From assembly GCA_051313645.2 (NCBI GenBank), contig JBNRSN020000010.1, positions 9,238,001 to 9,302,000 of the forward strand: a stretch of 64,000 nucleotides of DNA, written 5' to 3'. Both the position numbers and the translations under genes were made by a program. This DNA is from Centroscyllium fabricii (lineage: Eukaryota). Under the pieces are notes generated by a model that ran no database searches, was not told where the DNA came from, and was given only the letters and a program-made list of their open reading frames with translations. Of this stretch, positions 4,553 through 58,010 are shown piece by piece. The first letter of the stretch is position 1. Each line of letters opens with the position of its first letter.

Positions 4553-4674
4553 CTCCTCTCATTCCTAAATGCCTTATCCTGTATCCTGAGACGGTGACCA
4601 TTCTTTCTCATCCCCCCAGCCAGGGAAAACATTCTCCCTGCATCCAGTCTGTCTAGCAGATGCAGAATTTTAAA

Positions 4675-11440: not shown

Positions 11441-11557
11441 CGTGGTCATAATAACAGTGTATGTGTGCGTATCCACGAGTACTGGAGGAGCATGGTCACA
11501 TAAAGGGAAGGTGTAGAGAACCACTAGTACTGGAGGAGCACGGTCCCACATATTGTA

Positions 11558-16398: not shown

Positions 16399-16650
16399 TG
16401 TGGTGAATAAAAGGCTTTTATTCACTAAGACATGGGCATGCCCCAGCTAGTCGACTGCTCCCGGAATGATGGGGGGAGGGAGACAGTCACTTTTATACTT
16501 GGTCCAGGGAGGAGGGGCCACAGGCGGAGTCAGCACGGGCATGCCCAGGCAAGCTATACACGAAGAACTATATACACACAGAGAGGGTCATACATAGAAT
16601 GCTAACGGTTATAGATATGATACAGATATATAATGCAGTGGTTTACCACA
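16399..16650 (-). mobile_element. Short solo LTR
   Basis: Termini TGTGGTGAA...TTTACCACA; TATAAAA and AATAAA on the - strand; no clean TSD. Confidence 0.6.
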
Positions 16651-28364: not shown

Positions 28365-29834
28365 TGATGGAGACAAAACACAGAGCCTATCCTTGAAGGG
28401 ATAATTACTAGTCCTAGCCCGTTTCAGGCTACCCCAGACCAGGTGTGTTCCCCAGACGTTCACCTTCAAATAAAGTTAGAGATAGCCGAACTCTATAGGA
28501 TGATTAATTGGGCCTAAAGTTTCAGACTATCACTACCTAAAGCAAAGAAATGACATGAAGATGTTGCCATCTTCTTGATATCACTTTTAAAAAGTTTAGC
28601 TGGACTGTAACCTTCCAGATATTATGAGGGTCCGGAATACAACCCAAAATTCTGCAACTCCTTACATAAGAGTTTGCAGAAATTGAGTTTCCGAGTTTGA
28701 CACATAAATAATAATTGCGACAATTATAAAAATATATTGATTTATTTAAAATCGGACATACAATTACCAGCGTTTGAGTCAAACAAAACATTAGCAGTTC
28801 GAAAACAAATAGCTTACATTGCTTATCCTCAGAGATCGTTATTCACAAATCTTAACTGCGTACAGTTTTACATTTAATATTCTTAATTATAAACAAGGAT
28901 GTCCACCAAAATCAAATACTTTGATTAACCAAAATTCAGTGTTGTAGGATTACAGAGTCGTTCTGAAGCCGAAAATCACCTGCCCCTTTCCAAATACTTC
29001 TGACTGTCTATCTGAAAAAGCTCCATTTGATAAGTGCTTTTGTGGTTTATCCATTAAGGTTCTCTTCCGATGTAAGCTAATTATCACTAGTCTTCTCTCT
29101 GTAGACGTTTTTCGATTCTTACTGTCAATTTAGCTGCTGCATGCATACTTAATTCTCTACCTTTAAGTGTTGCAAAAACGTATCAAAAGAAAAGGCTTGA
29201 AGAGATTTATCTCTGATGTCATTCTTGTCAAAGGACTTGCATTGAGTTCTTAACATTGGCTGAATTGGTTATTAGCCAACCTTGTTTCTCCGTGATATTC
29301 TAAGTGAAAGACAAAGTCCATGTGATTGTCTGGTGTCATCTATTGAAGTCATTTCTTCAAAGTTTTGTGTTGATATCATATTTACTACATGCAAATTTAA
29401 CAAACTTCCACTAGGGTGTTTACTTGCTTCCTAGCTGTCCCAATGTTTGAATTGGAAATTACGTCTCCTGTTTTCCAAGTTTAACATAAAAACTATTTGA
29501 CCAGCAGTTGTTTATTTTACTTGATATTATCTTTTCAAAGGCACATGCCTCTTTTAATTCATCTGTGTTCCTGCTCAACGTGTTAGTTTTTAACACTTTA
29601 CTTAGATCATTCCATTGTGTTTTTCCCAAACTCCAGACCTTCTGGAAGCGCCAAACTGCTATTTCAACAGTGTTATTGTTTTAGTATTAACAATGAAATC
29701 CCATTTCAAAACTTGTGATGTTTAAAATGTTTGTGTTACCGAAACATACCATTTCATGAGCTTATATTGACACAGCTTGTGTCGCTGGGACATTCCAGAT
29801 TTTTAAACCCAGTAGGTCATCTTTAATAATATCA
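28365..29834 (-). mobile_element. Long solo LTR (~1.47 kb)
   Basis: TGAT...ATCA termini with 4-bp TSD GAAT (28361-28364, 29835-29838); no ORF; orientation tentative. Confidence 0.6.
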
Positions 29835-30687
29835 GAATTCTGCTTATATGGTGTATTTTTCTGAGATATGGATTGTTCCTTCACATCCTCAATTATTCAA
29901 CAATCCCTTTAATTCTAAGGATAATTTAAGTATCATGTGTTCGTTACAAGTAGTTTGTTACTGTGAGTGGTTTCCTGATAATAGTATGATTTCAATGTTA
30001 TTGAAACTCATGGCAGAATTTGAATATTGTGCACGGTTTCGGGTAAACGTTGTATTGCTTACAACTATATCCGCTGATTGCAATGAAAGTTCAATACAAG
30101 TGGATTATTTACTCAGTGAAACAGGCACCTCCAACTGCGTTCACAAACTGTAAACCTTTCATAGGTAATTGGTGGGCAGTTAGTGGGCAATTAGTTCAAC
30201 TTTGTGCAACGAATTAGTATTTCCCAGTCGGAGCAGATCGTCTATCAAGGCATATCTTGACAGATCGGAAGTACCAGATTTAACGCATCTGCAAGTGCAT
30301 GCAGACATACAGAACGTTTGGACATTTTCAAAGACGGTATGACGGTGTACTCTCAGAGTACGCCATCTTACCCACCGCAAGATTTGCCCCAGCATATCGG
30401 AAGATGCAGCTTCTGGAGCGAAGCACGTCCAGCTGGTGGCAGAAGTGAGCAGCTTCTGCTGTTAATTTATTACGATTCGCATTAGAAGAGGACAACCATA
30501 ACGAATCAAATCCAGAAGCAGGACTAAATGGAGATGTCCGACCAAATATATTACAGATTGTGCAGTGCTATATGGAATAGACACTTGTTGAAGAAACAGA
30601 ACAACACCCAGTTTACAGTCATCCCCACCGCAGCTCGCATTTCTCTCTGATAAATATGTCGTCCACACTTTATATTCCGTTGTTTAG

Positions 30688-30801
30688 GAAAAGTGCAGAA
30701 ATGTACCAGGTTACAGTAACCTGACAAAGCAAAACGGTGAAAACAGCAGACGATCTCAAAATGTAAACTGAATAATGAGGTTGGCAGACGACAACATGAA
30801 G
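30688..30801 (+). other. Putative 5'UTR exon of the NLR gene
   Basis: Acceptor gttgtttag, donor aag|gtaaag, 97-bp intron to the next exon; stops in all three frames. Confidence 0.35.
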
Positions 30802-30918
30802 GTAAAGTGTCAGCAGTTTTTAGAATTGTTTTAGATTATTAGGACTGTCAGTGAATACTTGAAAAACAAGAGTTCAAAATATGTTCTTTAATTTACAGCG
30901 ATTGACAATACTGCAAGA

Positions 30919-31024
30919 ATGGACGAACAATTCAAGCCTTACCACAAAGTGTTAAAGTTTGCAATACTGATGGCAACAATAGTTGGTATTGGAATCTGCT
31001 GTTGGAATAAACGGAAAAATCACG
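30919..31024 (+). CDS. NLR predicted first coding exon: membrane signal-anchor MDEQFKPYHKVLKFAILMATIVGIGICCWNKRKNH
   Basis: Acceptor tttaatttacag at 30898, Kozak-like agaATGg, donor cacg|gtaaga in phase 1 matching the phase-1 acceptor at 32453. Contains a 16-aa apolar run followed by NKRK. Confidence 0.6.
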
Positions 31025-31645
31025 GTAAGATTGCACCGCTGACAGCAATGATGTAGGAAATACAAATAACGAAATGACCATATTAATTATAGTGGAGCAA
31101 AAAGTATATGCCAGGCATGTTTATTTTCGATTGATATCACAAGACATTTTCTAAAAACGTTTTCCTTATTACTCGGTGTAATGATATCCATAACGTTTAG
31201 TGTGAGTACAATTGAGTTCAATCTATTTTCATTTCTAGGTTCTCGTATGTAAATCTAGCTTTTCAAGATAGAAAGGAGCAACTTGCGTTTAGTGTTTCAT
31301 TATTTTGATCTCTGTACATTATGTATTAGCTATTTATGCAAACGTGTGAAAATCACGACTGTGTCTAATTGCCCAACACATCTGGTGATAACAAAGCATT
31401 TAATCTCACCTGGAGTCCCGGATCACAATCCGGAACAGTAATATATTAATTTTCTGCATATACACTTCAATATGAATGTGTTGTGCTACCTTATCCACGC
31501 TATAGTGAACTTTATACGCCCTTCCTCAAACGACCTTTGGACATAGGCCGTTATAAACCTCAACATGTCCAGAGCTCTGAGACATTCATTCGATTTCATT
31601 CAAAATTGCAAGTATTCGTTATGAGCTTCCTCACTGACCTACATT

Positions 31646-32030
31646 CATAGAAACATAGAAGATAGGAGCAGGAGTAGGCCATTCGGCCCTTCGAGCCTGC
31701 TCCGCCATTCCATGAGATCATTGCTGATCATCCAAACCCAGCACCCTGTCCCTGCCCTCTCCCCATATCGCTCGATGCCTACACCGACACATATCCCACG
31801 TATCCCCGTAACCCACATATTCAATCCCCCTAACACTAAGGGTCAATTTATCCTGGCCAATGAACATAACCCGCACATCTTTGGACTGTGGGAGGAACCG
31901 GAGCACCCGAAACTCACGCAGACACAGGGAGAATGTGCAAACTCCACACAGGTAGTACCCGAAGGTGGATTTGAACCCGGGTCTCCAGTGCAGTGAGGCA
32001 ACAGTGCTAACCACTATGCCACCGAGCCGC
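31646..32030 (-). mobile_element. HE1-type tRNA SINE
   Basis: - strand head with A/B boxes (tggttagcactg..ccgggttcaaatcc), central core and CR1-derived tail. Confidence 0.9.
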
Positions 32031-32452
32031 TACTTAACCATTTCTGATCATTTGGGCAATCCTCCTACTCATCTACAAATCCATCTGCGGTGCTCAACCA
32101 TGTGCCGCTTGCTTTGGACACCGTTTTATCGCTTCCTCTGGTCCAGACCGCAGGCAAAGTCTTGAACGTCACTGGCGGGAATTCCGTTACGAATGGCCTT
32201 CCTCTCTGTACCTCATAAGGCTTTCAATAACATTAAAACGTTGAAAGGACTGGGCCCCTTTTCGTAACTCTACCACAACGAACCAGAGACAATTCGTAAT
32301 TACTCCGCTACGAGGCGCCACTGTCCATGACACTGCTTGAAATGCTCTAATGATAAGCTCTTTTCGGTAAAAGTTAGTTCTATTAAATCTTTGCTTCATA
32401 GCGGGCATTGTAAGTTAATCTGTTCTCATTTAACTATTGACCAACGATTCAG

Positions 32453-32598
32453 ATTCTAAATTCTTACTTACGTTGGCGAAATGCACGGATATCCAGCTGC
32501 GTCGCATCATCGTGCACAACCGGCAGAGTATAGAGCAGTCAATCAAAGAAGTAATGGTGGACATTCGTCAATCTCTCTTAGATGAAACAGATCATAAG
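32453..32598 (+). CDS. NLR exon: N-terminal death-fold/CARD-like domain, part 1
   Basis: ttcag|AT..AAG|gtatgc. DSKFLLTLAKCTDIQLRRIIVHNRQSIEQSIKEVMVDIRQSLLDETDHK resembles the recalled chondrichthyan NLR N-domain (..CDD.QL.QLT..YR.RLEQAIEE..). Confidence 0.8.
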
Positions 32599-32809
32599 GT
32601 ATGCTTCATATATGTTGGAATTGTATTTTGTTAAATGGATAATATACCTGACTGTTTAGACAGACTTTGTTCCGTGTAACTAACGATATAAGCAGTACTT
32701 TATTTTGTACGTTTTTAACATCAGTAGCCACCCTGAATTTGTTGTGCGGTGCAATTGTGTCCAACATTTGAAGTGCTCTTCAGCGATATCACCCTGTTAA
32801 ATTATTGAC

Positions 32810-33560
32810 ACAAAAATTAGTGAGACCGCGGGAGGTTTTTGAGACTGGTACTCATGCAGACGAGCTCCGAATTACAGGTAGCAACAGTTTCCCACTGCTA
32901 CCTGTAATTCTGATGACGGCAAGCAGGGCATCGCGAGTTGCAGCCGGCTGGATCGCGTTCGCCTGCGAACCAGGTGGTGCGCAGTGGATTTCCCATTTTT
33001 TTCTGAGTTTTTTTATCGGGGTAAGTATTGAAAATTTTACGCTGAAAAATATCAGCCATAACCATCCGCTTTTAGCAGGTAAGTCTTTATTTTATGGAAT
33101 TTAAGAATTTTTCTAAAAGGTTTTTAATTTTTTTAAACTTTAAAGACTAAGTATTCTTTTATGCCAGTTTAAAACTTTGCTTTTTAAAAAAAAAAAAATA
33201 TTTTTTCTTTAAAATAGGTAACTTATGTTAGTTAGAGTATTGTTAAAAAATGTTTTTTTATTTTTGTGTTTAGATGTATTTTTGAAGCTCTTCCTTTTGA
33301 TAACTTACACAGATTTCTCCGTGTAAGTTATGAATTGAGGATTACTTCCATTCATTGGATCCCCGAAGATCACGTGGTCCCGCGCGATATCTCCCACTAA
33401 CGGCATCGTTCAGTTGCACCAGCAGGGAGCCTGGAGCTTGCAGCAGCTGTACAGCTCTTGATTTCACATCATACAATTGCAGAACGGCAGGAGCGCATGG
33501 CAAGTGTATTCTGGAGGCATACACTCGCAGAAAGGCTCCTAGGCTATTATGTCTGGATTT
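32810..33560 (+). mobile_element. Old Harbinger-like MITE (family A relative), intronic
   Basis: Shares ggggtaagta..tacgctgaaaaa..agcaggtaagtc..cagatttctc with 6736-7495. Confidence 0.6.
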
Positions 33561-33639
33561 TCAATGAATTAATTCGTATAAAGATAAAATAATTTCCTGG
33601 AGTAGCCGTGATTTATTAGTAACTGGCTCCTAGGCACAA

Positions 33640-33895
33640 TAATTGTCAACTGCTGCATCAAAGAGCTTCATTCAAACATTCATCATGGCGCTGCTCGCTG
33701 ATGATTGCACAGTGTTCACTTCCATTCGCAATTCCTCAGAATATGAGGCTGTCCATGGCCGCGTGAAACAAGAACTGGACAACATCCAGGTTTGGTCCGA
33801 AAACTGGCAGTTAACATTTATGCCTGAAATTTCCCAGGTACTGGCTTCATGAAACTAGAGACATTCTAACCAATTGCCGTTGACATTCAAAGTCA
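33640..33895 (+). mobile_element. LINE RT fragment
   Basis: LLADDCTVF..QELDNIQVWSENWQLTF (FADD region). Confidence 0.6.
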
Positions 33896-33896
33896 T

Positions 33897-34210
33897 TCAT
33901 AGAATCATAGAATCCGTACAGTGCAGATAGAGGCCATTTCGGCCCATCCAGCCTGCACCGACACATATCCACCCCTATCCCCATCACGCCACATACTTAA
34001 TCCCCCTGACACTAAGTGTCAATTTATTCTGGCCAATCAACCTAACCCGCACATATTTGGACTGCGGGAGGAAACTGGAGCAACCGGAGGAAACCCACGC
34101 TGACACGGAGAGCATGTGCAAACACCACACAGATAGTCACCCGAGGCCGGATTTGAACCCGGGCTCCTGGCACTGTGAGGCAACAGTGCTAACCACTGTG
34201 CCACCGTGCC
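33897..34210 (-). mobile_element. HE1-type SINE
   Basis: ggcacggtggcacagtggttagcactgttgcctcacag on the - strand; (ctatgatt) tail. Confidence 0.9.
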
Positions 34211-34849
34211 ATCATCATTTTGCCGTCGTGATCGTCCTTTGGCTTATCATTAAAACTAGCTCTGAGAATTTAATGTCAAACTTATTGCTGTTAGGTTTAT
34301 TCAAGTAGTCGATAACCCTTGAAAGGATTATTCAAATAAGACACATTGTGCATCACAAGCATTCCACATTCTCATTACAGTCCAGTTGGCAATCTGGAGC
34401 TGGATCAAAACTGTAACAACCACATCATTCAATCTCATGTGAATAAGTTATCTGGCATATATAAACAGAACAGTAGGAATTTCCCTACGATCACATCGAG
34501 ATTTTCCGCATGTCCTCCATCAATACGGCCGTCTGTTACCAAACAACCATCCAATTGGATTCAGTGACTATCGTTGGCACGGATCTCAACAATTACTACT
34601 GAACTCATCCAGGTCGTTTCTTCCATTCTACTTCTTCCTAGGTCCCGAATCTACTTCAGCCCAATACTCAGGGACATCAAAAAACACACACCCTCTCACG
34701 ACAAGAATGCCATATTTTACCATTTCTTAAAGAAACTGCTAGAATAAACTATAATGTTTAACTGCTCGCTTTCTTCAATACCGGTTCACTTATGTAACAC
34801 AAATGTGAATAAACAAATACTATGAATAAAGTTGTTTTCTTAAAGGTAC

Positions 34850-35860
34850 TAAAATGAAAACAGCAAATGCTGGAAATAGCCAGGAGGTCGGATAGCATCT
34901 GCGGCGAGAGAAAAATGTTAAAGTTCAATTTCGATGAACATTCGTCATTATGGAAAAAAACTGGAGATGGAACATGATTTAAACAATTGCATGGGCAGGG
35001 AAAGGGGGAGTGGAGGAAAGTATAATAGGGAAGGTCTGTGATAGGATGGAAGACAGGAGAGATGAAGAGAAAAAGGGGATGATGCTGCAAAGCAAGAGGA
35101 GATGGTAATGGGACAAGTTAAGAAATAACAGATGGCTCCAGATGAAGTTGAGACGGCGAATTACTCGTACCTCTTGCAATATAGTATACTGTATTCGGTG
35201 CTCACGATGCAGTCTCCTCTACGTTGGAGAGAAAACGCAGATTGGATGACCGCTGTGCGGAGCACCTCTCTTCAGACTATAAGGGTGACACGGAGCTTCT
35301 GCTCACCTCTCATGTTAATTCTACGCTTGACTCACACTCTGGCCTCTCCGTCCTCGGCCTCTTACACTGTTCCAATGAAGGTCGAGGAACAGCACCTCAT
35401 TTTTCACTTAGGCACTTTACAGCCTTTTGGACTCAACATAGAGTTCAAAAGTTCAGACAATATCGTCTGCCTCTATTTGTTCCAATTATTTTTCTCTCTC
35501 TCACATGGCAGCTTTCTTTCACTCTGCCAGTGCCATTTACATTTCGTCTAGAAACAGCTTTTGTTTCATAACTTGTCCCATTATCATCTCATTTTGCCTT
35601 GCGCCATTAACCTTTTTGTCCCTCAATCTCTCCTGCCTTCCATCCGATCAAAAACCTTCCCTTTTGTTCTTTCCTCCACTACCAGCTTTTCCTGCTCACG
35701 CACTTGCTTTAAAACCCGTTCCATCTGCAGCTTTATCCAGTTCTGACGACGGGTCATCGACCTGAAACCTTAGCTCTCTTTCTCTCTCCACGGATGTTAC
35801 GTCACATGCTGAGTATTGCCAGCATTTTCAATTTTTATTTCAGATTTCCCGCTTTAACAG
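34850..35860. mobile_element. Second Penelope family remnant with inverted arm
   Basis: YCIRCSRCSLLYVGERKRRLDDRCAEHL..EEQHLIFHLGTLQPFGLNIEF (GIY-YIG). 34850-35140 is an approximate inverted copy of 35560-35860. Confidence 0.8.
35739..35776 (+). ncRNA. Hammerhead-like motif of the second Penelope family
   Basis: agtt-CTGACGA-c-gggtc-atc-gacct-GAAA-ccttagct. Confidence 0.5.
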
Positions 35861-36259
35861 TATGTTAATTTTGTTTTCTTCAAAGTTCAGTTTGTCTGCG
35901 GTTATGATATAATGGTGTGATGTACTTGCCTTATATAAGGCCAGGAGTGGAAGCTAAAGTACCCTCTTACAAAAAAATCGTGGCAACATAAGCTGTATGC
36001 GAATAGTGAAAGTCATTCATAACAGATTCAGTTACAGTACTGAAACTCAGCATTAATATAAGGAATTATTCAAAATACACATCTATAAGTTTGGGGTTAC
36101 AACATATTAATGGAACTGTTTTTCTATAAGGCGTTTCTTGACATACACCAAATAGCAGAAAAGCGACAGCGGAAGAGTTATACAGACAAATTGGAGAAAA
36201 GCTCAAAATTAACATAAATGGGGAATTGAGGCTATGGTGCCTGCAGCGTTCCAGGACAT

Positions 36260-36527
36260 GATGTGAAGGTGCCGGTCTTGGACTGGGGTGGACAAATGCA
36301 AGAAGTTACACAACACCAGGTTATAATCCAACAGTTTTATTTTAAATCACAAGCTTTCAGAGCGCTGCTCCTTCGTCAGGTGGAAGAGAAGTTGAGCCAA
36401 AGTTGCATATGTGTTTTCTTTGGATCAACTTCTCTTCCACCTGATGAAGGACCAGCGCTCCGAAAGCTTGCGATTTAAAATAAAACTGTTGGACTGTAAC
36501 CTGATGTTGTGTGAATTCTTGCATTTA
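36260..36527. mobile_element. Palindromic Penelope-derived mini-element with two hammerhead motifs
   Basis: 10-bp TSD TCCAGGACAT (36250-36259, 36528-36537); inverted arms; hammerhead on - at 36347-36383 and on + at 36437-36473. Confidence 0.85.
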
Positions 36528-37778
36528 TCCAGGACATTACATGGATGTGCATGATTTAATAACAACAAGGAAGGAATAAGCATTTGGTCCATTTCTAAAA
36601 ATGTGCAGGGACTAATAAGTGAATTAAAGATAGAGAAACATTCAACAATGATATGATTGGGATTCATATTTATTATAAAATGTTTTGTGACAAACCAACT
36701 GATAAACATTTTAAAGCAAAACAATTAATTTCAACGAGGTTATCCTATCAGCAGTTAAGAAGGATATGATCAGCTTCTGTCATGAGGAGGCTATGGAAGC
36801 TAACAAATAGGAGAAGTTTGCCATAAAAGATATCCAAATTACATCGGAATTAAAGGAGTGCAGCACAAACTAAAAGTGTTTGGAAGTGCAGTGAAAATAA
36901 AATTAAAAATAGATGTTAAATTGAAAGTAGGTGTGTGGAGCATGTTATGCCAAACAAATGAAGGAAGCCTGGATAATATAGTGAACAGTTATTAGCTCAA
37001 TGAGTGATATTTAACAACGTTGGAGACATTGATCACATTCCATATACACTTCAAAGAAAATACTTACTCAAAGAACAGAGCTCCTTAGAGACGAAAAGCG
37101 TATGGTTCATATAGAAGATGAAGGATTAACTGAAAAGCTATTGCTGCTGTTTCGATAAATTAAGTTGTTCCTTGGAATTAATGAAATAATCCTTGAAGAA
37201 ATGGAAAAGAAAGAGGGACGCGTGTAAAAAAGGCCGCCGATTCGCTTCAGCCAGATTCACCCAACTGGCCAACACTGGTCAATACTTTGTGACCCATTCT
37301 TTATGGTTGTTAACTTGTGCAATCTGAGTTGATAAAAACTAGGCTGCCTGCTTTCCAAAGTATGATTATCCTTATCAACTAAAAGTTATTGCGTTCCATC
37401 GAATCCTATACCTGTAATCCTGGCTTTTCATTTTTATTTGGCACTTTACACTTTTCCATCAGTCTGTTGTTGGATACAATGACAGAAAATCCAGTCGTCC
37501 TGGGTGACTGAAGGCTGCCCCTTTCTATCGCCGTACACTTCTCCAGTCCTGGATCCTATCGAGATCCCTTCGCTCGTCCAATTCTGGCCTCTTGTGCATC
37601 GCCCATTTTCATTGTTCCATCCTTGACTGCCATGCATTCAGCGGTTTAGACATAACCTGTGGAAATCTCTGCCTAAACCTCTCTGAATCTATAAATCGCT
37701 TTCCTCTAAGACACTCTTTGAAACCTTTTCTATGACCACTTGTCCTAATATCTACCTCACAAGTTCGGTGTTAAATGT

Positions 37779-38468
37779 TGGCCCAATCTTTCCGATCACG
37801 CATATTTTGATTTGGAGCTTGGGTGCAAGCGCTCCCGAGCTTCAAATCGCAGGAAGCAGCCGTTTGATTATCGCAGGAACCTGCGCACCACGTTGTGCAC
37901 AGTGACTTTCCGATTATCTTTTAAAGATTTTCATCGGGGTAAGTACTGAAGCTTCTACGCTTGAAAATACAAGTCTTAAGCACCCGTTAGTAGCAGGTAC
38001 GTCTTTATTTTATTGATTTTAAGTGTTGTTCTTTCAGGTTTATAACTTTTGTTACCTTTAAAGACATGTAAGTATTCTTTTTGGCCTGTTAAAGAATGTA
38101 AAATGGTTTTCTAAATTTAATTTTTTTCTTTAAAATTGTTAATTTATGTTAGTTGGTGTACTGTTAAATTAATGTGTTGTTTTTAAAATTTTATGTTTGA
38201 GCTTACATGTGTTTTGGAAGATCTCTCTTCAAATGTTAAACTGATTTCTCAGATTTCTTCCATTGATTGGCTCCTTGCCGATCACGTGATATCATGGGAG
38301 ATTTCGAACTAATTACGTTGTCCATTTGCACAAGCAGCTCGCACAGAGCTCTGACAAGCTGCACAGCTCGGAAAGTCACAGTGCAAAAATTCAAAACGGA
38401 AAAAGTGCTGAGTAAGTGCAAATAAAAGCACTACACTCGCGCGAAGGCTCCAGGCCTACTTTCTGGCC
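37779..38468 (+). mobile_element. Harbinger-like MITE (family A relative) inserted in an L2 3' end
   Basis: ggccc..tttctggcc ends and family A core; the L2-type tail (gaagcgctttgggatgtt) resumes after it. Confidence 0.6.
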
Positions 38469-38717
38469 GGTTGATTGTTAATACTCCGAAGCGCTTTGGG
38501 ATGTTCTGTTACGTGAGATCATATTGCTTCTACTCAATTCGCAATGTAATTCACGGTTCCTGCCTGACTCATGGCGAATTCTGTGCATTCACACGCGATT
38601 CTGAGCGTTTCTAATCATCACTCTCCTAAGGAAAGGAACAAAGAGAAAAGACGATTTTTATCAGATTTTGCGAATTACTTCTAATTAAATCTGATTGCAA
38701 TATATTGTTTTTTTTAG

Positions 38718-38901
38718 AGAATCAGAACCCAATCTAAATGTAACGGCAGTATTGATGACTCCAAAATCATTCTGGATATCGTGCTGGAAAAGGGAGCTCG
38801 GGCACAAAGAACGATGTTTATCATATTTTCAAAAAAACCGAAGAACATATCCAAGCTCAAAATAATAACAGAGATACTTACCAGATGGGCAGAGGGAGAA
38901 A
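38718..38901 (+). CDS. NLR exon: death-fold/CARD-like domain, part 2
   Basis: tttttttag|AGA in phase 0. RIRTQSKCNGSIDDSKIILDIVLEKGARAQRTMFIIFSKKPKNISKLKIITEIL resembles the recalled ..SSKLLLNLVMEKGSRARRVMW..KLDKILKEI. Donor is at 38902 or 38914 (both phase 1). Confidence 0.82.
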
Positions 38902-39614
38902 GTATGCTAGAAGGTAGCTGGTATCCAAATCTACTTTACCATCAGAATAACAAAGTTCTTTATTTAGGACGGAACTTGATTTTAAGTTAAAGTTTGTGAC
39001 AGTAAAGTTCGACTGGAGCAGGTACGGAAAACAAGTTGAATCGCAGTTCCCGACAGCTCTAACACGCGCCAGATTATTCGTTCTGTCAAAGTCAATGGAT
39101 CTGAATACTGGGCGGAGCAGAAAATAGGCAATCGATGCAATACCATATGTTTTACCACCCGGCCCAATGCCAATTTCTCCCCTTCTCACTTTCGTTTGAC
39201 AACTCAATTTATTTAAAAAAAAAAAAATGTTTTACGGGGTTAAAAATGAACTTAGCTTTTTAAAAGAATGTATGATTTATAAATTAGTGAACTTTCTCTT
39301 GAGAATTACAGGCAAATCAGAAGTGCCGGTTTTAAGCGCATGTGTTTTGCATGCCTGACACCGGTACCTGCGAGGGGCCTACAGGGGTGTGCACACCCCG
39401 TACATACGCGTTGGTGTCTGAAAATATGGCCACATATAACCAAACGATCACATAAATATCATGAAGTTACTATGTATTATTTTGACTTGTTTCACAAAAC
39501 GTTATTGCTATCGCACAATTTACCGGTCCAATTTTAGTAAATTTATCCGAATGCAATGTTTTCATGCATCAACGTAGCAGTGCATGTAGACAAGTTGACT
39601 GATTGTGACTTATT

Positions 39615-41297
39615 GGGCCCTGTTTTCCTGTGCTCCAGAGAAGCTGCACACTCACGAAGGGGGGTCAGAAATGCCCCGTGGGTGTGCAGCACGGGGGATG
39701 CCCACGAACGGGAATTTCCTGTGCTGATGGGCAAGTCCCGTCAGCTTCCAACGCAGGAAGACCTTGCACTGATGATTTCCTGTCAGAACGGGTGATTTTT
39801 GGAGAGTGATTCCGTGTGCAACTGGCTCACAAGCTGCACATTTAAAAACCAGTAGGAAGGGGAGCAGATTTAGTTACTGAAGCAGGTAAGTTAATTTTTT
39901 AACTTCAATTTAATTCTTTTACAGTTTTTGGTAGTAGTGTGGCCAGATCGGTAGCGTTAAATTGTTAAGTTAAAGTTTTTTAAAAAAAATTACAAATCCG
40001 ATTTTAAGTTAATTTACCTGTTTCAAATCGCTAATTTTTAAATTTAAATTTCCGAAATTTTTAACTCTCTAGCTATTAAAAAATCTATTAGGAAAAAATG
40101 GCAGACTTACCTACCGTTTCTTCCTCTGAGAAGCTGCTGTGCCCCGCTGCTCCTCCCTCCTAGTCTGTGAGTGCAGCTCCGCACTTCCCTGCTCTCACAA
40201 AGGTCCGACTCGGGATCTGTTTATTTAAATTAGGGATCTGGGTGGCGTTTTTAATTTAAATTTGGATCTGTGGGCGGGGCTTACACTGCGCACCTAGCGT
40301 GGCTGGACTGCCACGCAGCGCAGGAAGGGGAGGAACGGGGAGGAAATTGACGTTCACACTTCTGTGCAATGTTGGTGCGTGAGATTAGGAGTCCCCAGGG
40401 TCCTAGCGCACGCACTAACCGGCACACAGGAAAACAGGGCGCATGGGTATGTAAAACTGGCGGTATCACGTCTGCCACCCGTTAGGGAGCTTGCTCCGAT
40501 GTTCCCTTCCATTGACCAATAGAACAGCATAACGGGCGGCCTGACCTGATGCCGTCTGTGTCCTGCTCTGGTCTGATAGTGAGCCATGTCTTCCTGTGGC
40601 CCGATTGCTGCGGGTGCACGCTGACGTGCACCCGCGGCGCACGCGCACGTAATTTTTTTTTTCTGTCACGTGAACTTCCTGTGCAAAAAGCCGTTTTTTT
40701 TAGTTCGGAGGGGTCATGTTTCTTTTGGTGCAGGGTGCAAGCCACGCCCACTGAGGTCGGCTATACCCCCGCACAAAGCACAGAATCGGACTGAGGATGA
40801 AGAAGGTCGGGTAGGGAAGCACCTTTTTTTTGTTTTTTTTCAGTTTCTAGGAAGCTGTTTTTTTAAAGTTTCTGCCTTTTTCTGCTGTTAGGGTTTTTTT
40901 TGCTCCAGAGAAAAAAACACGTTTAAAGTTAAAAAAAAAATTGATTCCTTTGGAGATATTTGTCTGTGGTCTTTCAGCTTGTGAATGTGTAGGGTTTTAT
41001 ATTTTTTGGTGAAAGTGAAAAAAAACAGGGATTTGAACGCGATGTCAGCAGCTGTGATTCCCATCAGAATATGTGCAGCAAAAGAGAGACTTCCCCACGT
41101 GATACACCCACATTTTGAGCAGCTGCCTACAGGAAGTCTGCAGCTCAAAGTCTTCCTGGGTAGGAAGCTGAAGCCCCTTGCCCATCAGCACAGGAAGTTC
41201 ACGTTTTTGGTAATCACCCGAGCTGCACCCCAACGAGGCATTTCTGACCCCCCTTCGTGGGGGTGCAGCTCTTCTGGAGCACAGGAAGTCAGGGCCC
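39615..41297. mobile_element. Non-autonomous Harbinger-like element with ~150-bp TIRs (family B)
   Basis: gggccctgttttcctgtgctccagagaagctgcac.. matches the inverted ..gtgcagctcttctggagcacaggaagtcagggccc; flanks att/aat. Confidence 0.8.
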
Positions 41298-42176
41298 AAT
41301 GTGTTTACATATTTGGAGCGGAGGTTTCAACATGGACATTACGAGATTTCAAGAAATCTCCACTGCACTTCAAATATTGTAAATTCATATTTTGATACAA
41401 ACGTATCTTTCCATCTGTATTTTTATGCATATATAATATTTTGGTGTATGTACAGATACATATAGAAGTGAATAGCAACATTTTTCTAAAAAAGATAGTT
41501 AGCTACAAAGACTGATACCAAAAAAACATATTCTCCACAAAATATAATGCACCATAAAGACCATAACATTATGATATTTCCCGACATAACAATCAAGAAA
41601 ATGATCGATATTCTTCGAATCTCCATCTCTTAGTCTCTGCAAATCTCCCCTCTGCTCTGACCCAGGAGACTCCTGCGGGCTCCGCTGGCCACTAACATGT
41701 ATCTGACGGTTAAAGCATTGAGCAGCAGAATCAGAACAATTGGCATCTCCGGGGTGAAGCATCTCGTTTTTTTCCGAGATCCGCAGTTCCCCAATATCGT
41801 TTGTTACAGGACGAAAGCAGGAGTTGTCCATAACTCATATTGACCCGTGAACATAAATTACCAGTAAGATTTACTTTTCAATTTATGTCGTAGCTGAGAA
41901 ATCTTCATTACCTGAAGCTCGAAATTCAACAGAAAAGGACACACAATCCTCAAGTTTGCTTCATGCTACATTTCCGTGGCACTTCAGAAATTATGTTTTT
42001 TTAATTCTATGATTATTTGGGTAATAAAGTGAAAATAATTAAGGGAGCACACATTGCTAACACATTTTAGACATTTCTTTTTATTTACGATTACTTTTTC
42101 GTTCTTAGTAATGATCTGTTAATGTGTTGTCTCCTGAATTACAATGACTATACCAATGTCGTTTTCCACATTCAAG

Positions 42177-43896
42177 AGATAGAACTACAGCACAAAGACT
42201 CTTTCTTCATACAGAACGAAAAGCTAACAGTCAAAACCACTGGAGGAAATGAAAAAATTCGAAGAATTTTCCTGGATGAAATGTATACTGATGTAAGGAT
42301 TGTTGCTCCCCTGCGAGTGCGGAGACTGGTAGAAAATGAACTGAAGGCCCTAGGTAGAGAGCGTGAAGAATTACAAAGGAAAAACATCGAGAATGAACTG
42401 CGAGAGTTTCAGCTAGATCAATTGTTCAGTTTCCCTAAAACAGGCAGGTCCAGGACAACTGCGGTAATTGGAGCGGCAGGGATTGGGAAAAGCACAATGA
42501 TACAGAAGATAATCCGGGATTGGGCCGCGGGGAAAATATACCAACAGTTTAAATTTGTCTTTCATTTTAATGTTCGGAACTTAAATTTAATAGAAGGCAA
42601 AACATGTCTAAATAGCATAATCCTCGATTCCTACCCCGATTTCGAAAATACGTTGGAAGTTTTGATGAAAGAACCCGGAAATATATTGTTTATTTTTGAC
42701 GATTTAGATGGCTTGCGGCAAACCATCGATTTTACAGATAATCGGAGAAACAACGACCCCCAAAATCAGTGTTTCGATCCCGAGTGCTGCTGCGAAATTT
42801 CAGATATCTTGCGTTGCCTCATCAACGGGGAGCTGCTCAATGGCTGCTCAGTGCTGATCACAAGCCGGCCGTGGAGACTGGAGTCTCTGGAAAAGGCAAA
42901 TACAATTGCAAGGGTCGAAATATTGGGTTTCGGCTCTGAGAACATAAAGCATTACTTTCGCAGTTATTTTGGAGATGAACAATTTGCGACAGATGTAATC
43001 GAGTACATTGAGCAGAATGAAACATTGTACACGATGTGCTATAATCCGCTGTACTGCTCGGTCCTCGCTTCATTATTTGATTCACATCGGACAGAAGGAG
43101 CGGTGCACAGACCATTGTCCGTCACAACCAGCACACGGGGGTTCTTGGCTTATGTCAGAATTCTTTTGGAGAAATGCGGCTGTGACGCAGAATCCTCTCG
43201 CGACATGTTGCTGAAACTGGGTGAGTTAGCCTACAAGGGAGTTTCCAACAAAACCATTGTATTTAATGAAAACCAAATCAGTCCCCACAGCCTCGAACTG
43301 CACAATGTTATATCTGCGTTTATGATGGAGATTCAGGCTGAAGGTTCGTGTCGTGTTACCTACGCATTCACTCACTCTGTTGTACGGGATTTTGTCGCTG
43401 CAATTATGAAATTTCTGAACACAGCAGGATATGGACTGACAGCATTGCTCAATGAAGGGTACACGTGCATTGACGAGCGATTCAATATATTTGAACATTT
43501 TCTTGTCGGTCTCTCCACGCGGTTTTCAGCTGATCAGCTTAAAAGCACATTGGGGACATCTCCTCCTGAAGCATTCCAGTGTGTGGCGGACTGGCTCACA
43601 GAAAATGTCAAAAGACGTGTTCAGAACTTGGAAGATCGGCAAAGCCAAAGGACATTCTTAAAGTTATTGCATTATTTTATTGAATTTGGAGATCTAGACC
43701 TGATGAAGGCCACTTTAACACCGATAAAAATAATGAAATTCACAAAGTGTCGTCTGAAACATTCTGACTGTGCGGTTATTTCAACCGCATTAACGGCCGT
43801 TGAATTCATTGAAGAGCTGAATCTCAGTAGCTGTGATGTACAAGATGAAGGCATCCACAAGCTGGAGCCCGTGCTACACAAATGTAAAATACTCAG
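42177..43896 (+). CDS. NLR large exon: pre-NACHT region, NACHT, winged helix/HD2 and first LRR
   Basis: Within the 592-aa ORF: Walker A GAAGIGKST, Walker B ILFIFDDLDG, sensor 1 VLITSRP, CYNPLYC, YAFTH, LRR IEELNLSSCDV. Splice sites ttcaag|AG and CAG|gtaatt. Confidence 0.96.
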
Positions 43897-44249
43897 GTAA
43901 TTTATAGAAACATTTAAATAGCAATATCAGCAACTACTGTTTTACAGGCAAGTGGCATAGTATTTCATAAAACCAAAAGCCTATACTAAATTTGATCAAT
44001 TAATGGGCACATCCTCTCATTGCATTGTCTGCTGTGCTAAATTAATCGTTAAGTAACGGCAGCCTCGTGTCTGTTCGGTTATTACCCGAGCGTGCTGTGG
44101 TGCTCATTTAACGTAATCAGATTGGGTGTTGACAACATCATATCTGAAACTTGCACACTTTTCGTACCACGTGGAACTCTGCATTAATAAGTTATATATC
44201 CACTTAATCACCATATATTATTCTCTATTGTGATATAACACCATTTCTC

Positions 44250-44560
44250 AGAATCACAGTATCGTACCGCGTAGAAGAAATCCGTTCAGCCCATTTTGCC
44301 TGTTCTGCTTTTTCTAAAGAGCAACCCCATTAATCCCACTCCCCGCTCATTCTCCATAGTGCTTCAATTTTATCTCCTTCGAGTGTTTGTCCAATTCCTA
44401 TTTCAAAGTTACCATTGAAACTCATTCCAACAGCCTCTCAGGCCGTGCATTTCGGATCACAACAACTCGTTGCCGATTTCTTCCCCTCATCTAGAATCTG
44501 TCTACTTTTACCAATTACCTTCTGTCCTTGTCCTTTGGCTAACGACACCCTTGCCACTGG
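44250..44560 (-). mobile_element. CR1 3' end fragment
   Basis: cagaatcacag..ttcagcccat..cattccaacagcctctcaggc. Confidence 0.55.
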
Positions 44561-45176
44561 AACATGACCAGTAAGAAAATATTCCTCTTTTTTGAACTGG
44601 AAGCAATGCTTGATTAATTTGCAAGCGAGTTATAGATGTACCATTGGGAAGTTCACAATTCTTCTATCCGAATGGATTTGCGGAACTAATAATGATGTTT
44701 TTGAGCACATGCTACTAACTTAGAGAGAATGATGTGGGTTCGTGTCTGCAATTCCTCAAGTTCTGAATACTATTTCTAGCGGCACAGAGGTCGGGAGGGA
44801 TGTAAAATGAGAGGGAATGTCACTCCATCTTTTCTTATGCACATTCGAGCGATCTGTTAAAATCCACATCAGTGGATTCTCCAATAGACTTGACAATGTT
44901 GTATTTGTGCATGTTGAATTTCAGTGCATCAAGAAAATAACTTTCCTATAATAGAGATAAGTTCAGAGTTTACCCTAAATTCTCCGTTTAAAGAAGGGAA
45001 TGTTCCTGTGAGAGTCATTTTGTTGAGGATTACTCTTCGTTTCTGATCACCAGTATACAGCATGTAAACCGTCAACTATTCAGTGCCCACTTTAATTGTA
45101 AACGTTTTATATGTGTGCTTAAAATTGACCACCGACATTAGAGTAACTTCCGGGAAAGCAACCATACTCTCTGATA

Positions 45177-45405
45177 ATGTGGAGGTGCCGCTGTAGGACT
45201 GGGGTGGACAAATGCAAGAAGTCACACAACACCAGATTTATAGTCCAACGGTTATATTTTAAATCACAAGCTTTCGGAGCGATGCTCCTTCGTCAGGTGA
45301 TCCGAGAGTCTCTCTCGGTTCACCTGACGAAGGAGCATCGCTCCGAAAGCTTGTGATTTAAAATATAACCGTTGGACTATAAATCTGGTGTTGTGTGACT
45401 TCTTG
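45177..45405. mobile_element. Palindromic Penelope-derived mini-element with twin hammerheads (perfect arms)
   Basis: 14-bp TSD CATACTCTCTGATA (45163-45176, 45406-45419); identical 89-bp inverted arms 45212-45300 and 45320-45408. Confidence 0.92.
45320..45356 (+). ncRNA. Minimal type I hammerhead ribozyme (mirror copy on - at 45264-45300)
   Basis: tcac-CTGACGA-a-ggagc-atc-gctcc-GAAA-gc-tt-gtga: stem I tcac/gtga, stem II, palindromic AGCT stem III. Confidence 0.75.
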
Positions 45406-45606
45406 CATACTCTCTGATAGCCACTGATTTTACCACAAGACCTGCATGCAATTAACTTAATGATATCATTGTATTGAATTGCATTAGCTGTTTCATATTC
45501 TTGGATATCCAAAGTGTCCCATGTTTAATAAGTTAATTAATTGACAATATTTCCTGTCTGATGCTTTATTCAACATCCACTAATGATTGTGTTTATTTGT
45601 GCTTAG

Positions 45607-45693
45607 ACTCAATGAGAATAAACTGGGAGAATCGGGAGTGAAACGGCTCTCTGCAGTTTTAAAGAAACATGAATGTAAAATACAGAGACTGGA
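45607..45693 (+). CDS. NLR LRR exon (87 bp)
   Basis: gcttag|A..GGA|gtgagt, phase 2/2; LNENKLGESGVKRLSAVLKKHECKIQRLE is an RI-like LRR. Confidence 0.93.
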
Positions 45694-45898
45694 GTGAGTA
45701 AATTTGAAGAAAATATCGAACCGCACCACTGGAGAGATATCTATGTACAATAAAACATATTACTGTGTTACTGATGATCAGTCAATCTCATTATTCAATT
45801 TACCTTATGAACAAAGTCTTTTAGAAAGGGGAAGCCGTGCATAAATGAGGATCAGTATTCCGCCGTGATGTTGTAATTCGACAGTAAATATTTGCAAG

Positions 45899-47940
45899 TC
45901 ATAGATTCATAGAGCCATAGAGTAACAGAGCACAGAAAAAGGCCATTCGGCCCATCGCGTCCGTGCCGCCCATCAATCCCAGTCTATACTAGTCCCATTT
46001 TCCCGCATTTGGTCCTTAGCCTTGTATGCTGTGGCATTTCAAGTGCTCAGCCACATGCATTTTGAATGTTGCGAGGGTTCCCACATCTACCACCCTCTCA
46101 GGCAGTGAGTTCCAGACTCCAACCACCCTCTGGGTGAAAAAGTACTTCCTCACATCCCCATGATACCTCCTGCCCCTTACCCTAAAATTATGCCAACTAG
46201 TTATTGATCCATCAACCAAGGGAAAAAGTTCCACTCCATCCACCTTATCTATTCCCCTCATAATTTTGTATACTTCAATCAGGTCCAGTCTCAGCCTCCT
46301 CTGCTCCAAGGAAAACAACACCAGCCTCTCGAGTCTCTCCTCATAGCTGAGGCTCCCCAGCCCAGGCAGCATCCTGGTGAATCTCCTCTGCACCCTCTCC
46401 AAAGCTATTACATCCTTCCTATAATGTTGCGACCAAAACTGGACACAGTATTCCAGCTGTGGCCTTACCAGCGTTTTGTGCAGCTCCATCATAACCTCCC
46501 TGCTCTTATATTCTATGCCTCAGCTAAGGAAGGCAACTATCCCATATTGCTTTTAACCACCGTATCCACCTGCCCTGCTGCCTTCTGGGACCTATGTACC
46601 TGCACACCAAGTTCCCTCTGATCCCCTGCCTTCCCTAGCGTCCTACCATTCATGATGTATTCCTTTGCCATGTTAGACCTACCGAAATTCATCACCTCAC
46701 ACTTTTCACGATTACATTCGATTTGGCACTGTTCCGCACATCTGATCAACTCGTCTGTTATCCTGCATGTTGCGGATTTCCTCCGCAGTGTTTGCCAACC
46801 CCCCATCAATTATTTCATCTGCAAACATATTGATCATGCCTTTTACATAAATATCTAAATCGTTAATATAGTCTACAAACTGCACGGGACCCAACACCGA
46901 TCCCTGCGGTACCCCACTGGAGGCAGGCTTCCAGTCACAAAAACAACCTTCGACCATCACAATCTGCCTCCTTTCACTAAGCCAGTTTTGGATCCACTGT
47001 GCCAAGCTGCCCTGGAACCCATGGGCTCTTACATTCTTGACCAGTCTCCAATGCGGGAACTTATCAAAAGCCTTGCTAAAATCCATGTATCCCACATCCA
47101 ATGCGCTACCCTTATCCACACACCTGGTCACCCCTTCAAAAAATTCAATCAAATTAGTCAGACACAAGTTCCCTTGACGAAGCCATGCTGACTATCCTAA
47201 ATTATTCCTTGCCTCTCCAAGTAGAGTCTAATTTTGTCCCTCAGGATTCTTTCTAGTAATTTCTACACCACTATCCTTAATTATTCCTTGCCTCTCCAAG
47301 TAGAGACTAATTTTGTCCCTCAGGATTCTTTCTAGTAATTTCTACACCACTATCCTTAATTATTCCTTGCCTCTCCAAGTAGAGACTAATGTTGTCCCTC
47401 AGGATTCTTTCTAGTAATTTCTACACCACTATCCTTAATTATTCCTTGCCTCTCCAAGTAGAGACTAATTTTGTCCCTCAGGATTCTTTCTAGTAATTTC
47501 TACACCACTATCCTTAATTATTCCTTGCCTCTCCAAGTAGAGACTAATTTTGTCCCTCAGGATTCTTTCTAGTAATTTCTCACCAGCCTGTAATTCCATG
47601 GTTTCTCCCTACTGCCTTTCTTGAACAATGGCACTACATTGGCCATCCTCCAGTTCTACGGCACATCCCCTGTGGCCAGAGAGGTTCTGAAAATTTGTGT
47701 CAGAGCCCCTGAAAGCTCTTCCTTAGCCTCGCCCAGCAGCCTGGGTTACATCTCGTCAGGGCCTGGAAACGTATCAACTTTTAAGCCTGCTAAAACCGCT
47801 AGTACCTCCTCCGTGTCAATACTAATCCGATCAAGTGTATCCTCCTGTCGTATTTCAATGTCCACATCGCCCTCCTACACAATGAACACAGATGCAAAAT
47901 ATTCATCCAAAACCCCACTTACATCCTCTGGTTCTACACA
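45899..47940 (-). mobile_element. CR1/HER1 LINE, relatively young, intronic
   Basis: CLTNLIEFFE..DFSKAFDK..GVPQGSVLGP..FADE; LVRPQLEYCVQFWS..FFTQRVVGVWNSLP. Confidence 0.95.
47191..47585 (+). repeat. 79-bp tandem repeat x5 inside CR1
   Basis: Near-identical units start at 47191, 47270, 47349, 47428 and 47507. Confidence 0.95.
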
Positions 47941-48016
47941 GAAATTCCCAAGTGGCGAAATTTTATGTGTCTGTGTGTTTTTCATATAATCGCTGTTTAT
48001 TTTTCGATCATGGCAG

Positions 48017-48208
48017 GTTAAAATCTAATGGTCTCACAGATGATTGTGTGGAAAGTCTTTTCACTGCTCTCCGTGTGAACCGTTCACTGATGGAGCTGGA
48101 GCTCAGTAACGATAATCAGGATGGCGAAGAGGCCAACAGATTGACGGAGAAGTCTGTTTCGGCATTGCGAAATCTTCTCCAGAGTGGTGCTAATCTCAAG
48201 GAAACCAG
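48017..48208 (+). CDS. NLR LRR exon (192 bp)
   Basis: ggcag|G..CAG|gtgact, phase 2/2; LKSNGLTDDCVESLFTALRVNRSLMELELSND..NRLTEKSVSALRNLLQSGANLKETR. Confidence 0.92.
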
Positions 48209-48230
48209 GTGACTTGCCTTGTTAAATATT

Positions 48231-48442
48231 GGGCGGCACGGTGACACAGTGGTTAGCACTGTTGTCTCACAGCACTAGAGACCCGGGTTCCAATACGTGT
48301 CGATGCAGGCTCGATAGTGATTTGGGGGAAGGGCAGGGGCGGGGTACTGGGTTTGGATGATCAGCCATGATCTCATTGAATGGCGGAGCAGGCTCGAAGG
48401 GCCGAATGGCCTACTCATGCTCCTAGTTTCTGTGTTTCTATG
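48231..48442 (+). mobile_element. HE1-type SINE, internally deleted
   Basis: gggcggcacggtgacacagtggttagcactg..acccgggttc head joined to the ggccgaatggcctactc tail. Confidence 0.85.
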
Positions 48443-48652
48443 CGCTATTTAAATGTTACTTCACGTTTAAAATATATTTTCATATTTCACTTAATAACTG
48501 GACCTGTAACAGAAAATAAATACATTCTGGATAATTTGTTTCCCCCATACGAGTAAAACATTTGTTTTGAATAAATCTAACAATATTGCTACACACAGGT
48601 GACTGAATACTCCTTATTGATAATATTGTTTCGGTATCTTAATTTTTTTCAG

Positions 48653-48719
48653 GCCGATACAAAATGAAGACATTGCAGAAGAAAAGCAAATTCTGACGGC
48701 AATCAATAAAAAGGATTAG
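48653..48719 (+). CDS. NLR terminal coding exon
   Basis: aatttttttcag|G in phase 2; PIQNEDIAEEKQILTAINKKD then TAG at 48717. Confidence 0.7.
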
Positions 48720-56440: not shown

Positions 56441-56735
56441 CATAGAAACTAGGTGATAACATAGAAACTAGGAGCAGGAGTAGGGCATTCGGCCCTTCGA
56501 GCCTGCTCCGCCATTCAATGAGATCATGGCTGATCATCCAAACCCAGCACACCGCCCCCGCCCTCTCCCCATATCCCTATCGAGCCTACACTGACACATA
56601 TCCCACCCTAACGCCGCAACCCCACATATTCAATCCCCCCTAACACTAAGGGTCAATTTATCCCGGCCAATCAACCTAACCCGCACAGATAGTACCCGAG
56701 GCTGGATTTGAACCCGGGTCTCCAGAGCTGTGAGT
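56441..56735 (-). mobile_element. HE1-type SINE, internally deleted
   Basis: Same tail and core as 31646-32030; B box tttgaacccggg. Confidence 0.85.
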
Positions 56736-58010
56736 AGCGCAGGTGATGTGACAGTTTGTGTTGCACTGGTATTCAGACAATCTATTTTACCCAGGGGGAA
56801 CTCACACTCTAAGTAGTGCGAGGTTATCTGACACTCTGTGTAGCCCACGGTTGTATTACACGTGTTGTAGCCTAGGGTAATCTAACACTCTGTGTAGCCA
56901 GTGTGATCTGGCCGTCTGTGTATCTGAAGGTATTCTGATACTCTGTGAAACCCACGGTATTCTGAGAACCTGTGTAGCCTATGGAATCCTGACGCTATGT
57001 TTATCCCAGAGTAATCTGACACACTGTGCAGCCCAAAGTTATTTTGAATTGATTGTAGCCCAGGGTGCTATGACACTCTGCGTAGCTCATGGGTTTTCTA
57101 ACAGTCAATGTATCACAGGTATACTGACACACTGTGTAGCCCTGGGTACTTTGCCACTAGGTTAAGCCCAGGGTAAACTGGCACCCTATATAGCCCCGGG
57201 TATTCTGACACGCTATGTAGCCTAGTGTAATCTGACATGAGTTTCAGCCCAGAGTATTCTGTCACTCTATGTAGCTCATGGTATTTCTGATTTTATGCGT
57301 AGCCGAGGTTACTCTGCCAATCTGTGTACACCAGTGCACTCTGACACTCTTTTAAGACCAGGGCACTCTGACCCTCTGAAGAGACCAGGGTACTCTGAAA
57401 AATTGTCGACCCGAAGGTGCACTGACACTCTGCTTAGCCCAGCGTAATCTAACATTCTGTGTTATCCAGTGTAATCGAGCAGTCTGTTTATCAAAGGTTA
57501 CCCTGATACTCTTCGTAGCACAGGGTAATCTGACACTCTGTGTAACACAGGGTATGCTGGCACCCTGTGTAAATTAACTACTCCGACCATCTTTTAAGAC
57601 CAGGTTATTGCTCCACTAACTTTAGGCCAGAATAATCTGACATTCTATAGAGCCAAGGGTACTCTGACATTCTGTCTACCCTAGGGTTCTCTCACACTGT
57701 GTTTAGACCAGTGTTAACTGACAATCTATGTAGCCCAGTGTTATCTGGAGGTGAGTGTAGCCCAGGGTATTCTGACATTCTCTGGAGTTCATGGTACTCG
57801 GACGCTCTGTGAAGGCAATGGGAAACTGAAACTATGTGTAGCCCAGTGTAATCTTACACGGTGTTGCCCAGGATACTCCGACAAACTGTGCACCCCAGGG
57901 TACCTGACACTCTATGTAGTCCAAGGTGAACTGGGAGACAATCTAGCCGAGGAATTTCAGTCAGATTGTGTAGCTCATGCGATTTCGGACACTCTGTGTA
58001 GCCCAGGTTA

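Follow-up and report, generated by a model that had tools for sequence, protein, structure and literature searches.

Are the NLRs (proteins that combine a nucleotide-binding domain with leucine-rich repeats) of vertebrates always free of membrane anchors, or can one of them be tethered by a helix of its own? This question is raised by a gene of the shark Centroscyllium fabricii, located in a stretch of 64,000 nucleotides of its 7.2-Gb genome (contig JBNRSN020000010.1, abbreviated C2; C2:9238001-9302000). This whole stretch is referred to as the window, and positions are counted from its first letter unless a contig is given. A sequence-only reading of the window had proposed that an exon for an apolar helix is spliced in frame to NACHT and leucine-rich repeat (LRR) exons, representing a membrane-anchored NLR class in cartilaginous fish. 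We found that the gene is an intact shark NLR, the nearest protein relatives of which all come from sharks and rays. That its product has the predicted anchored build, i.e. that it is a membrane-anchored NLR, is in our judgement very likely.

Gene model and domain organization

The helix exon and the in-frame chain of about 833 amino acids described by the sequence-only reading proved to be real. Seven exons, separated by GT-AG introns throughout, join in frame and encode 833 amino acids from the ATG at 30919, with a single stop codon at the end. The encoded order is a hydrophobic helix, a CARD-like domain, a NACHT domain and a short LRR. The features are as follows, with corrected boundaries for the LRR exons:

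30899..31024, plus strand: helix exon, phase 1-1, with the likely start codon at 30919, a predicted single membrane helix at about 30949-31005, a Cys pair and a basic cluster
32453..32598, plus strand: exon of phase 1-0 encoding the CARD-like domain's first half, 43% identity to the corresponding part of S. torazame P0008
38718..38901, plus strand: exon of phase 0-1 encoding the CARD-like domain's second half; judged by eye, it is shorter by a few residues than in relatives at the exon 2/3 junction
42177..43896, plus strand: FISNA-like segment, NACHT, winged helix, HD2 and first LRR (Pfam NACHT 122 bits, NOD2_WH 37.5 bits; NLRP3 alignment)
42470-42496, plus strand: Walker A, GAAGIGKST, in the NACHT exon
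42689-42712, plus strand: altered Walker B, FIFDDLDG, in the NACHT exon
42857-42874, plus strand: sensor 1, ITSRPW, in the NACHT exon
43373-43393, plus strand: winged-helix domain (WHD) motif HSVVRDF, in the NACHT exon
45607..45693, plus strand: LRR exon of 87 nt, placed by the in-frame chain and by homology to relatives
48017..48208, plus strand: LRR exon of 192 nt, 64% identity to the LRR end of P0008
48653..48719, plus strand: last coding exon with the stop codon, retained in paralogue B (see below)

The helix exon is 126 nt long, is flanked by TTTACAG and GTAAGA and reads IDNTAR-MDEQFKPYHKVLKFAILMATIVGIGICCWNKRKNH. Its frame is open upstream of the ATG as far as the acceptor, as had been stated, and the ATG has an A at -3 and a G at +4. 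The NACHT exon has the rarer AAG acceptor, and a weak score was obtained for that of exon 2. Four read sets were inspected across 29500-31600; they cover intron and exon alike and contain no splice joint, thus behaving as DNA and being uninformative on expression.

The NACHT domain (PF05729) was recognized with 122.2 bits at a cut-off of 26.7, and the closest sequence match in the PDB is NLRP3 (expect value E 1.5e-45). The winged helix (PF17779, 37.5 bits) scores above its cut-off and HD2 (PF17776, 29.4 bits, E 1.3e-6) under its cut-off of 33.1. The LRR was assigned by homology, as its exons are 59-64% identical to those of relatives; P0008 passes LRR_6, and the exons of the window are under the cut-off. 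A Pfam scan of this protein and 11 relatives gave no match to a pyrin domain.

The death-fold-like domain noted earlier between helix and NACHT resolves to a CARD in the model of a homologue, and the two exons of the window by themselves match no Pfam family. These exons align to the domains of relatives, for which Pfam CARD was found in 7 of 16 rows, next to weak matches to the CARDs of RAIDD and Apaf-1 (E 0.01-0.03). For the predicted model of the P0008 domain (predicted local distance difference test score, pLDDT, of 89), the first nine fold matches are CARD entries; the CARD of ARC is matched with a template modelling (TM) score of 0.88 and a root-mean-square deviation of 1.3, and no match has an E below 0.001. 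Matches in the ESM Atlas include CARD clusters at 0.79, which were used as a lead only. The middle domain is thus described as CARD-like, a fold predicted from the homologue P0008, and the window's own domain looks a few residues shorter.

The predicted membrane helix and the start of the protein

The best 19-residue Kyte-Doolittle window of the protein (VLKFAILMATIVGIGICCW) is in the helix exon and scores 2.16; the best in the remaining protein scores 1.31. A membrane-grade hydrophobic window is present only in the first exon, giving one helix and not three to five. As the first coding exon encodes a predicted helix, the protein is likely to be located in a membrane. When 85 kb were scanned with a hidden Markov model (HMM) for which 16 helices, all from other species, had been used, the helix exon came out at the top (E 0.0022, with 0.75 for the next segment) of the 1779 segments without a stop. 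In pairwise comparisons, the helix score was reached by 0, 2 and 3 of 2000 shuffles for Heterodontus P0005, Mobula P0160 and Heterodontus P0001, respectively. The helix exon is probably homologous to the helices of the relatives, and the resemblance is probably not a matter of chance. The helix and topology calls are based on hydropathy and flanking charge and predict the N-out/C-in layout that had been proposed from the positive-inside rule: the net charge is +1 before and +3 after the helix, and the C-side is the more positive one in all 17 models of helix-bearing relatives.

An extracellular module further upstream had also been suggested. Such a module exists in the models of relatives, 12 of 17 of which have a signal-peptide-like start, but none was found in this genome: exon scans, HMM, Pfam and tblastn searches of approximately 74 kb upstream detected no signal-peptide or ectodomain exon. 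No upstream exon was found by tblastn with the N-termini of relatives, the best match of the signal-peptide HMM among 3198 segments had an E of 0.37, and none of 106 plus-strand frames of at least 72 amino acids contained an Ig or other Pfam domain at E 0.001. Upstream candidates at 5475-5538 and 14430-14546 and a strong donor at 26951 were rejected, because the ATG was not conserved, the phase was wrong or the shape of a signal peptide was missing. Among the S. torazame isoforms, some begin with MDEN just ahead of the helix, as in this gene, others have a signal-like start, and one (P0121) is helix-less. A predicted signal anchor starting at MDE is the simplest reading, and small divergent upstream exons could be missed.

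A shark and ray NACHT clade

A search with the NACHT exon returned 125 and 4240 relatives from two libraries. In total 203 proteins were compared. Those that reached 420 aligned residues and 230 bits, 113 in number, were placed on a tree together with the three local copies. The gene belongs to a clade of 41 rows with a support of 100 and a long stem (FastTree); a repetition with IQ-TREE on 46 rows again gave a support of 100. Sharks and rays account for all clade rows that carry a species name; eight rows have none, and the chimaera rows that are named lie outside the clade. Models of this type include S. torazame XP_072354258.1 and XP_072354259.1, Mustelus XP_078087540.1, Mobula XP_062892860.1, Pristis XP_051865153.1 and Heterodontus XP_067916153.1. 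None of the 27 other NACHT loci of the C. fabricii genome that were placed on the tree fall in the clade, the remaining 98 of 128 matches being unplaced.

A hydrophobic segment before NACHT (19-residue Kyte-Doolittle average of at least 1.9) was found in 16 of 25 models inside the clade versus 4 of 54 outside; the three local copies and rows with fewer than 60 residues before NACHT (13 inside, 21 outside) were excluded. The 16 helix-bearing clade models span 12 species, in support of the proposed class in cartilaginous fish, and three of the four outside cases are bichir butyrophilin fusions. In a held-out set of 100 proteins, of which 22 were short, the segment occurred in 0 of 77 proteins with a long N-terminus and without the DD motif (see below), and in the single one with DD. 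The relatives' models come as sets of up to 15 variants, several of which are one residue apart. Sets of near-identical RefSeq isoforms suggest transcript support.

Two other architectures were seen among the compared proteins. In S. torazame P0302 (1405 amino acids), a signal-like start is followed by four repeats that by eye are CARD-like, and then by a helix, a CARD and a NACHT with DD Walker B; if the model is real, CARD-like domains would be on the outer side. In Erpetoichthys P0142 and P0050 and Polypterus senegalus P0216, which are outside the shark clade, a butyrophilin-like Ig ectodomain and a helix are fused to CARD-NACHT-LRR. These bichir and reedfish proteins may represent either a transmembrane NLR that arose a second time, independently, or a fusion of gene models; no report of a butyrophilin-NACHT build in these fishes was found in the literature search.

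Paralogues and selection

Two paralogues, A (C2:8485564-8503500) and B (C2:8595732-8612200), are located 0.7-0.8 Mb away and are approximately 92-96% identical to the gene, including introns. Divergence from the paralogues is 5.1-5.7% in exons versus 4.8% in introns. The exons of the three copies, which are 4-6% apart, contain no stop codon, for which simulation gave a chance of 0.005 and 0.0025; the helix exon alone has a 69% chance of staying stop-free. Exon indel events number 0 and 2 versus about 6 expected for each paralogue; together the two events amount to 9 nt, and the reading frame is preserved. The ATG and the helix are retained in paralogue A, the last two exons of which are absent from the fetched stretch. 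The proportion of nonsynonymous differences (pN) between the paralogues is at or above that of synonymous differences (pS) in most exons. The family therefore diversifies fast, and the ratio of nonsynonymous to synonymous substitution rates (dN/dS) is uninformative.

An altered ATPase switch

The extended Walker B consensus for NLRs is hhhhDGxDE, which the FIFDDLDG of this gene does not fit. Canonical DGxDE occurs in none of the 41 clade rows versus 66 of 74 rows outside. With NLRP3 residue numbers counted by hand from the alignment, the G301 site is Asp in 38 of 41 clade rows (1 of 74 outside), the Walker B Glu (E304) is kept in 6 of 41 (72 of 74 outside), Arg is present at the R260 site in 7 of 41 (72 of 75 outside) and Glu at the E525 site in 0 of 41 (73 of 75 outside). 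The old catalytic Glu position varies freely within the clade (Q, E, R, L, D, G). Walker A is intact in this gene, and its Gly/Gly/Lys are invariant in the clade rows covering them; the ADP-binding His is lost in 14 of 41 rows. Further clade-specific residues are a Trp after sensor 1 (42857-42874; 93%) and, at residues 490 and 503 of the NACHT exon, an HD2 Gln (93%) and a Phe (95%).

The NLRP3 variants G301D, R260W and E525K are reported to be constitutively active, and G301E to lower hydrolysis eightfold (PMC10966137). For NOD2, a lock formed by R334-E383-E600 is described, which is broken by R334Q/W, E383G/K and E600A with activation as the result (PMC4906405). Judged from the alignment, the clade has lost the NLR off-lock, the changes being at positions where mutations are activating in human NLRP3 and NOD2. 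An AlphaFold model of S. torazame P0125 (pLDDT 82) fitted the active NLRP3 disk best (TM score 0.53 versus 0.24-0.39 for the other listed entries); this fit was not counted because no soluble control was folded.

Two other explanations were considered. The protein could be anchored and catalytically dead, a regulator or decoy that binds partner NLRs, CARD adaptors or pathogen effectors at the membrane and damps or baits signalling. That the catalytic Glu and the ADP-binding His have been lost would be expected of such a protein, as would the long branches, the pN values at or above pS and the many clade members without a CARD; in addition, the immediate upstream neighbour is a soluble canonical NLR from the nearest outside lineage, in the manner of a gene pair. 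The invariant Walker A residues and the second Asp kept in 38 of 41 rows argue against a dead protein and point to selected nucleotide handling, and the same substitutions activate, and do not silence, NLRP3 and NOD2. We regard a dead regulator or decoy as unlikely.

Somewhat less likely still is an anchored protein with a working ATPase, in which the new Asp after the first Walker B Asp has become the catalytic base, so that the switch is rewired and not primed. An hhhhDD motif occurs in NB-ARC proteins such as Apaf-1, and among the clade-specific changes the Asp at this second position is the best conserved, the old Glu position being left to drift. An acid at G301, however, lowers hydrolysis in NLRP3, as reported for G301E (PMC10966137), and the lock Arg and WHD Glu are also lost, which a catalytic shift alone would not require.

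Proposed mechanism

The mechanism that we favor is that of a membrane-held, pre-primed NACHT-CARD platform triggered by clustering; taken as a whole, we give it an even chance of being correct. The helix would insert N-out/C-in. In this gene, with its start at MDE, it would do so as a signal anchor; in many relatives it would follow a signal peptide that is cleaved off. CARD, NACHT and short LRR would then face the cytosol, likely as a pre-primed signalling platform at the membrane. With the Arg/Glu/Glu lock lost throughout the clade and G changed to D in Walker B, ATP hydrolysis would be slowed and an open NACHT favored. The level of activity would therefore follow from local concentration, or from clustering within the membrane, and not from LRR ligand release. 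Clustering would oligomerize NACHT and present the CARD to an adaptor or caspase. A broader proposal, which we consider possible and rather doubtful, is that sharks and rays own a membrane-spanning NLR receptor class with a variable outer part and one helix on an unlocked NACHT, in which clustering, triggered from outside the cell or from the organelle lumen, fires an inflammasome-type platform; bichirs may match it independently through their butyrophilin ectodomain-CARD-NACHT fusion.

Observations that weigh against an anchored, pre-primed NLR

A number of observations speak against anchoring or against the mechanism built on it. In paralogue B, frame-keeping deletions have removed the ATG and the central part of the helix, and its product may be soluble. 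The expectation of the sequence-only reading that dN/dS would be below 1 for the helix exon was not borne out between the paralogues (pN 0.066, pS 0.062), giving no sign of purifying selection on this exon. The helix match to S. torazame is no better than that of shuffles (440 of 2000) and the match to Mustelus is weak (18 of 2000), and the charge bias around the helix is small in this gene. The splice junctions are those predicted from genomic sequence, the relatives are computed RefSeq models, 9 of 25 clade models with a long N-terminus have no hydrophobic segment, and the rows of the tree are related, so that counts are not independent events. With regard to the mechanism, the Arg of the lock is retained in this gene, and by eye a CARD is kept behind the helix in only about 5 of 17 helix-bearing models; CARD output can therefore not be the universal mechanism of the clade.

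Several of these points would fit a helix exon that is untranslated, skipped or a remnant of a small membrane gene, with RefSeq models that are fusions of neighbours and a soluble CARD-NLR as the product. The missing upstream signal-peptide exon and dN/dS signal, paralogue B and the helix-less S. torazame isoform P0121 are all in line with this. Against it, the helix-NACHT order is shared by 12 species and limited to a single NACHT clade, the models of relatives form sets of near-identical variants, the exon is stop-free with an open donor of the right phase, and the two deletions in paralogue B keep the frame. A soluble product is in our view improbable, more so than either alternative raised for the ATPase switch.

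Genomic surroundings

A soluble CARD-NLR is located upstream of the window (C2:9173400-9194500); it is 71% identical to Heptranchias P0021, of the lineage nearest to the membrane clade, and the same pairing is found ahead of paralogue A. Window positions 4548-22036 are the second copy of a tandem duplication of approximately 18-19 kb, the first copy of which starts about 13.7 kb before the window; the duplication is also present at paralogue A. Degenerate 27-bp tandem arrays occupy 55265-57927 and 62329-62992, and five 79-bp copies with 98% identity (47191-47585) lie in the intron ahead of the second LRR exon. The 128 NACHT matches in the genome are spread over many contigs (C1377, C2, C823, C945 and C1233); they are mostly stop-free and many are clustered on C1377, representing a large NLR expansion.

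Comparison with known systems

Vertebrate NLRs are described as cytosolic, and a shark and ray clade with its own helix would break this rule within the jawed vertebrates. A literature search, with most subscription journals outside its reach, found no description of a transmembrane NLR from a vertebrate or a shark. The closest known sequences are elasmobranch RefSeq models named 'NACHT, LRR and PYD domains-containing protein 3/6/12-like', which share the NACHT clade, the helix before NACHT, the short LRR, the DD Walker B and, in some cases, the CARD-like domain. Many of them differ in having a signal-peptide-like start and a variable ectodomain, neither of which was found in the C. fabricii gene. 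Their names make no mention of a membrane anchor and imply a pyrin domain, which Pfam did not find in 11 relatives.

An expansion of the NLRP-related NACHT family in a cartilaginous fish, comparable to the NACHT matches in this genome, has been described for the whale shark (PMC8455134). There the family is treated as intracellular and no anchor is mentioned in the parts consulted, the two uses of 'transmembrane' in the main text being unrelated; this likeness is one of description. Transmembrane NLRs are reported from anthozoans, from a sea cucumber and, weakly, from a sponge (PMC5094078, PMC3879445, PMC13133943). The sea cucumber proteins AjNLRC4 and AjNLR-new are membrane-located NACHT proteins with a transmembrane helix and Ig domains, with the NACHT of AjNLRC4 inside (PMC13133943). 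They resemble the shark gene in combining NACHT with a transmembrane helix, predicted in the shark, but are from an invertebrate and carry Ig domains, with no CARD or LRR described in the text consulted; no Ig exon was found upstream of the shark gene. The anthozoan proteins have an N-terminal membrane segment on a NACHT protein, predicted there as here, and are called an anthozoan innovation, other metazoan NLRs being considered cytosolic (PMC5094078, PMC3879445). They are predicted to have three to five helices, in contrast to the single helix in a vertebrate here.

With respect to the switch, the closest parallel is formed by the gain-of-function alleles of human NLRP3 and NOD2 (PMC10966137, PMC4906405). 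The fixed changes of the clade are at NLRP3 G301/E304/E525/R260, counterparts of the NOD2 lock. The human alleles are disease mutations in soluble proteins, whereas in the shark and ray clade the altered residues are the wild-type state throughout. The clade would thus be a natural experiment on NLR control, in which sites of human autoinflammatory disease have changed as wild type, and it raises the question whether such proteins are kept safe by anchoring, by dosage or by the loss of catalysis.

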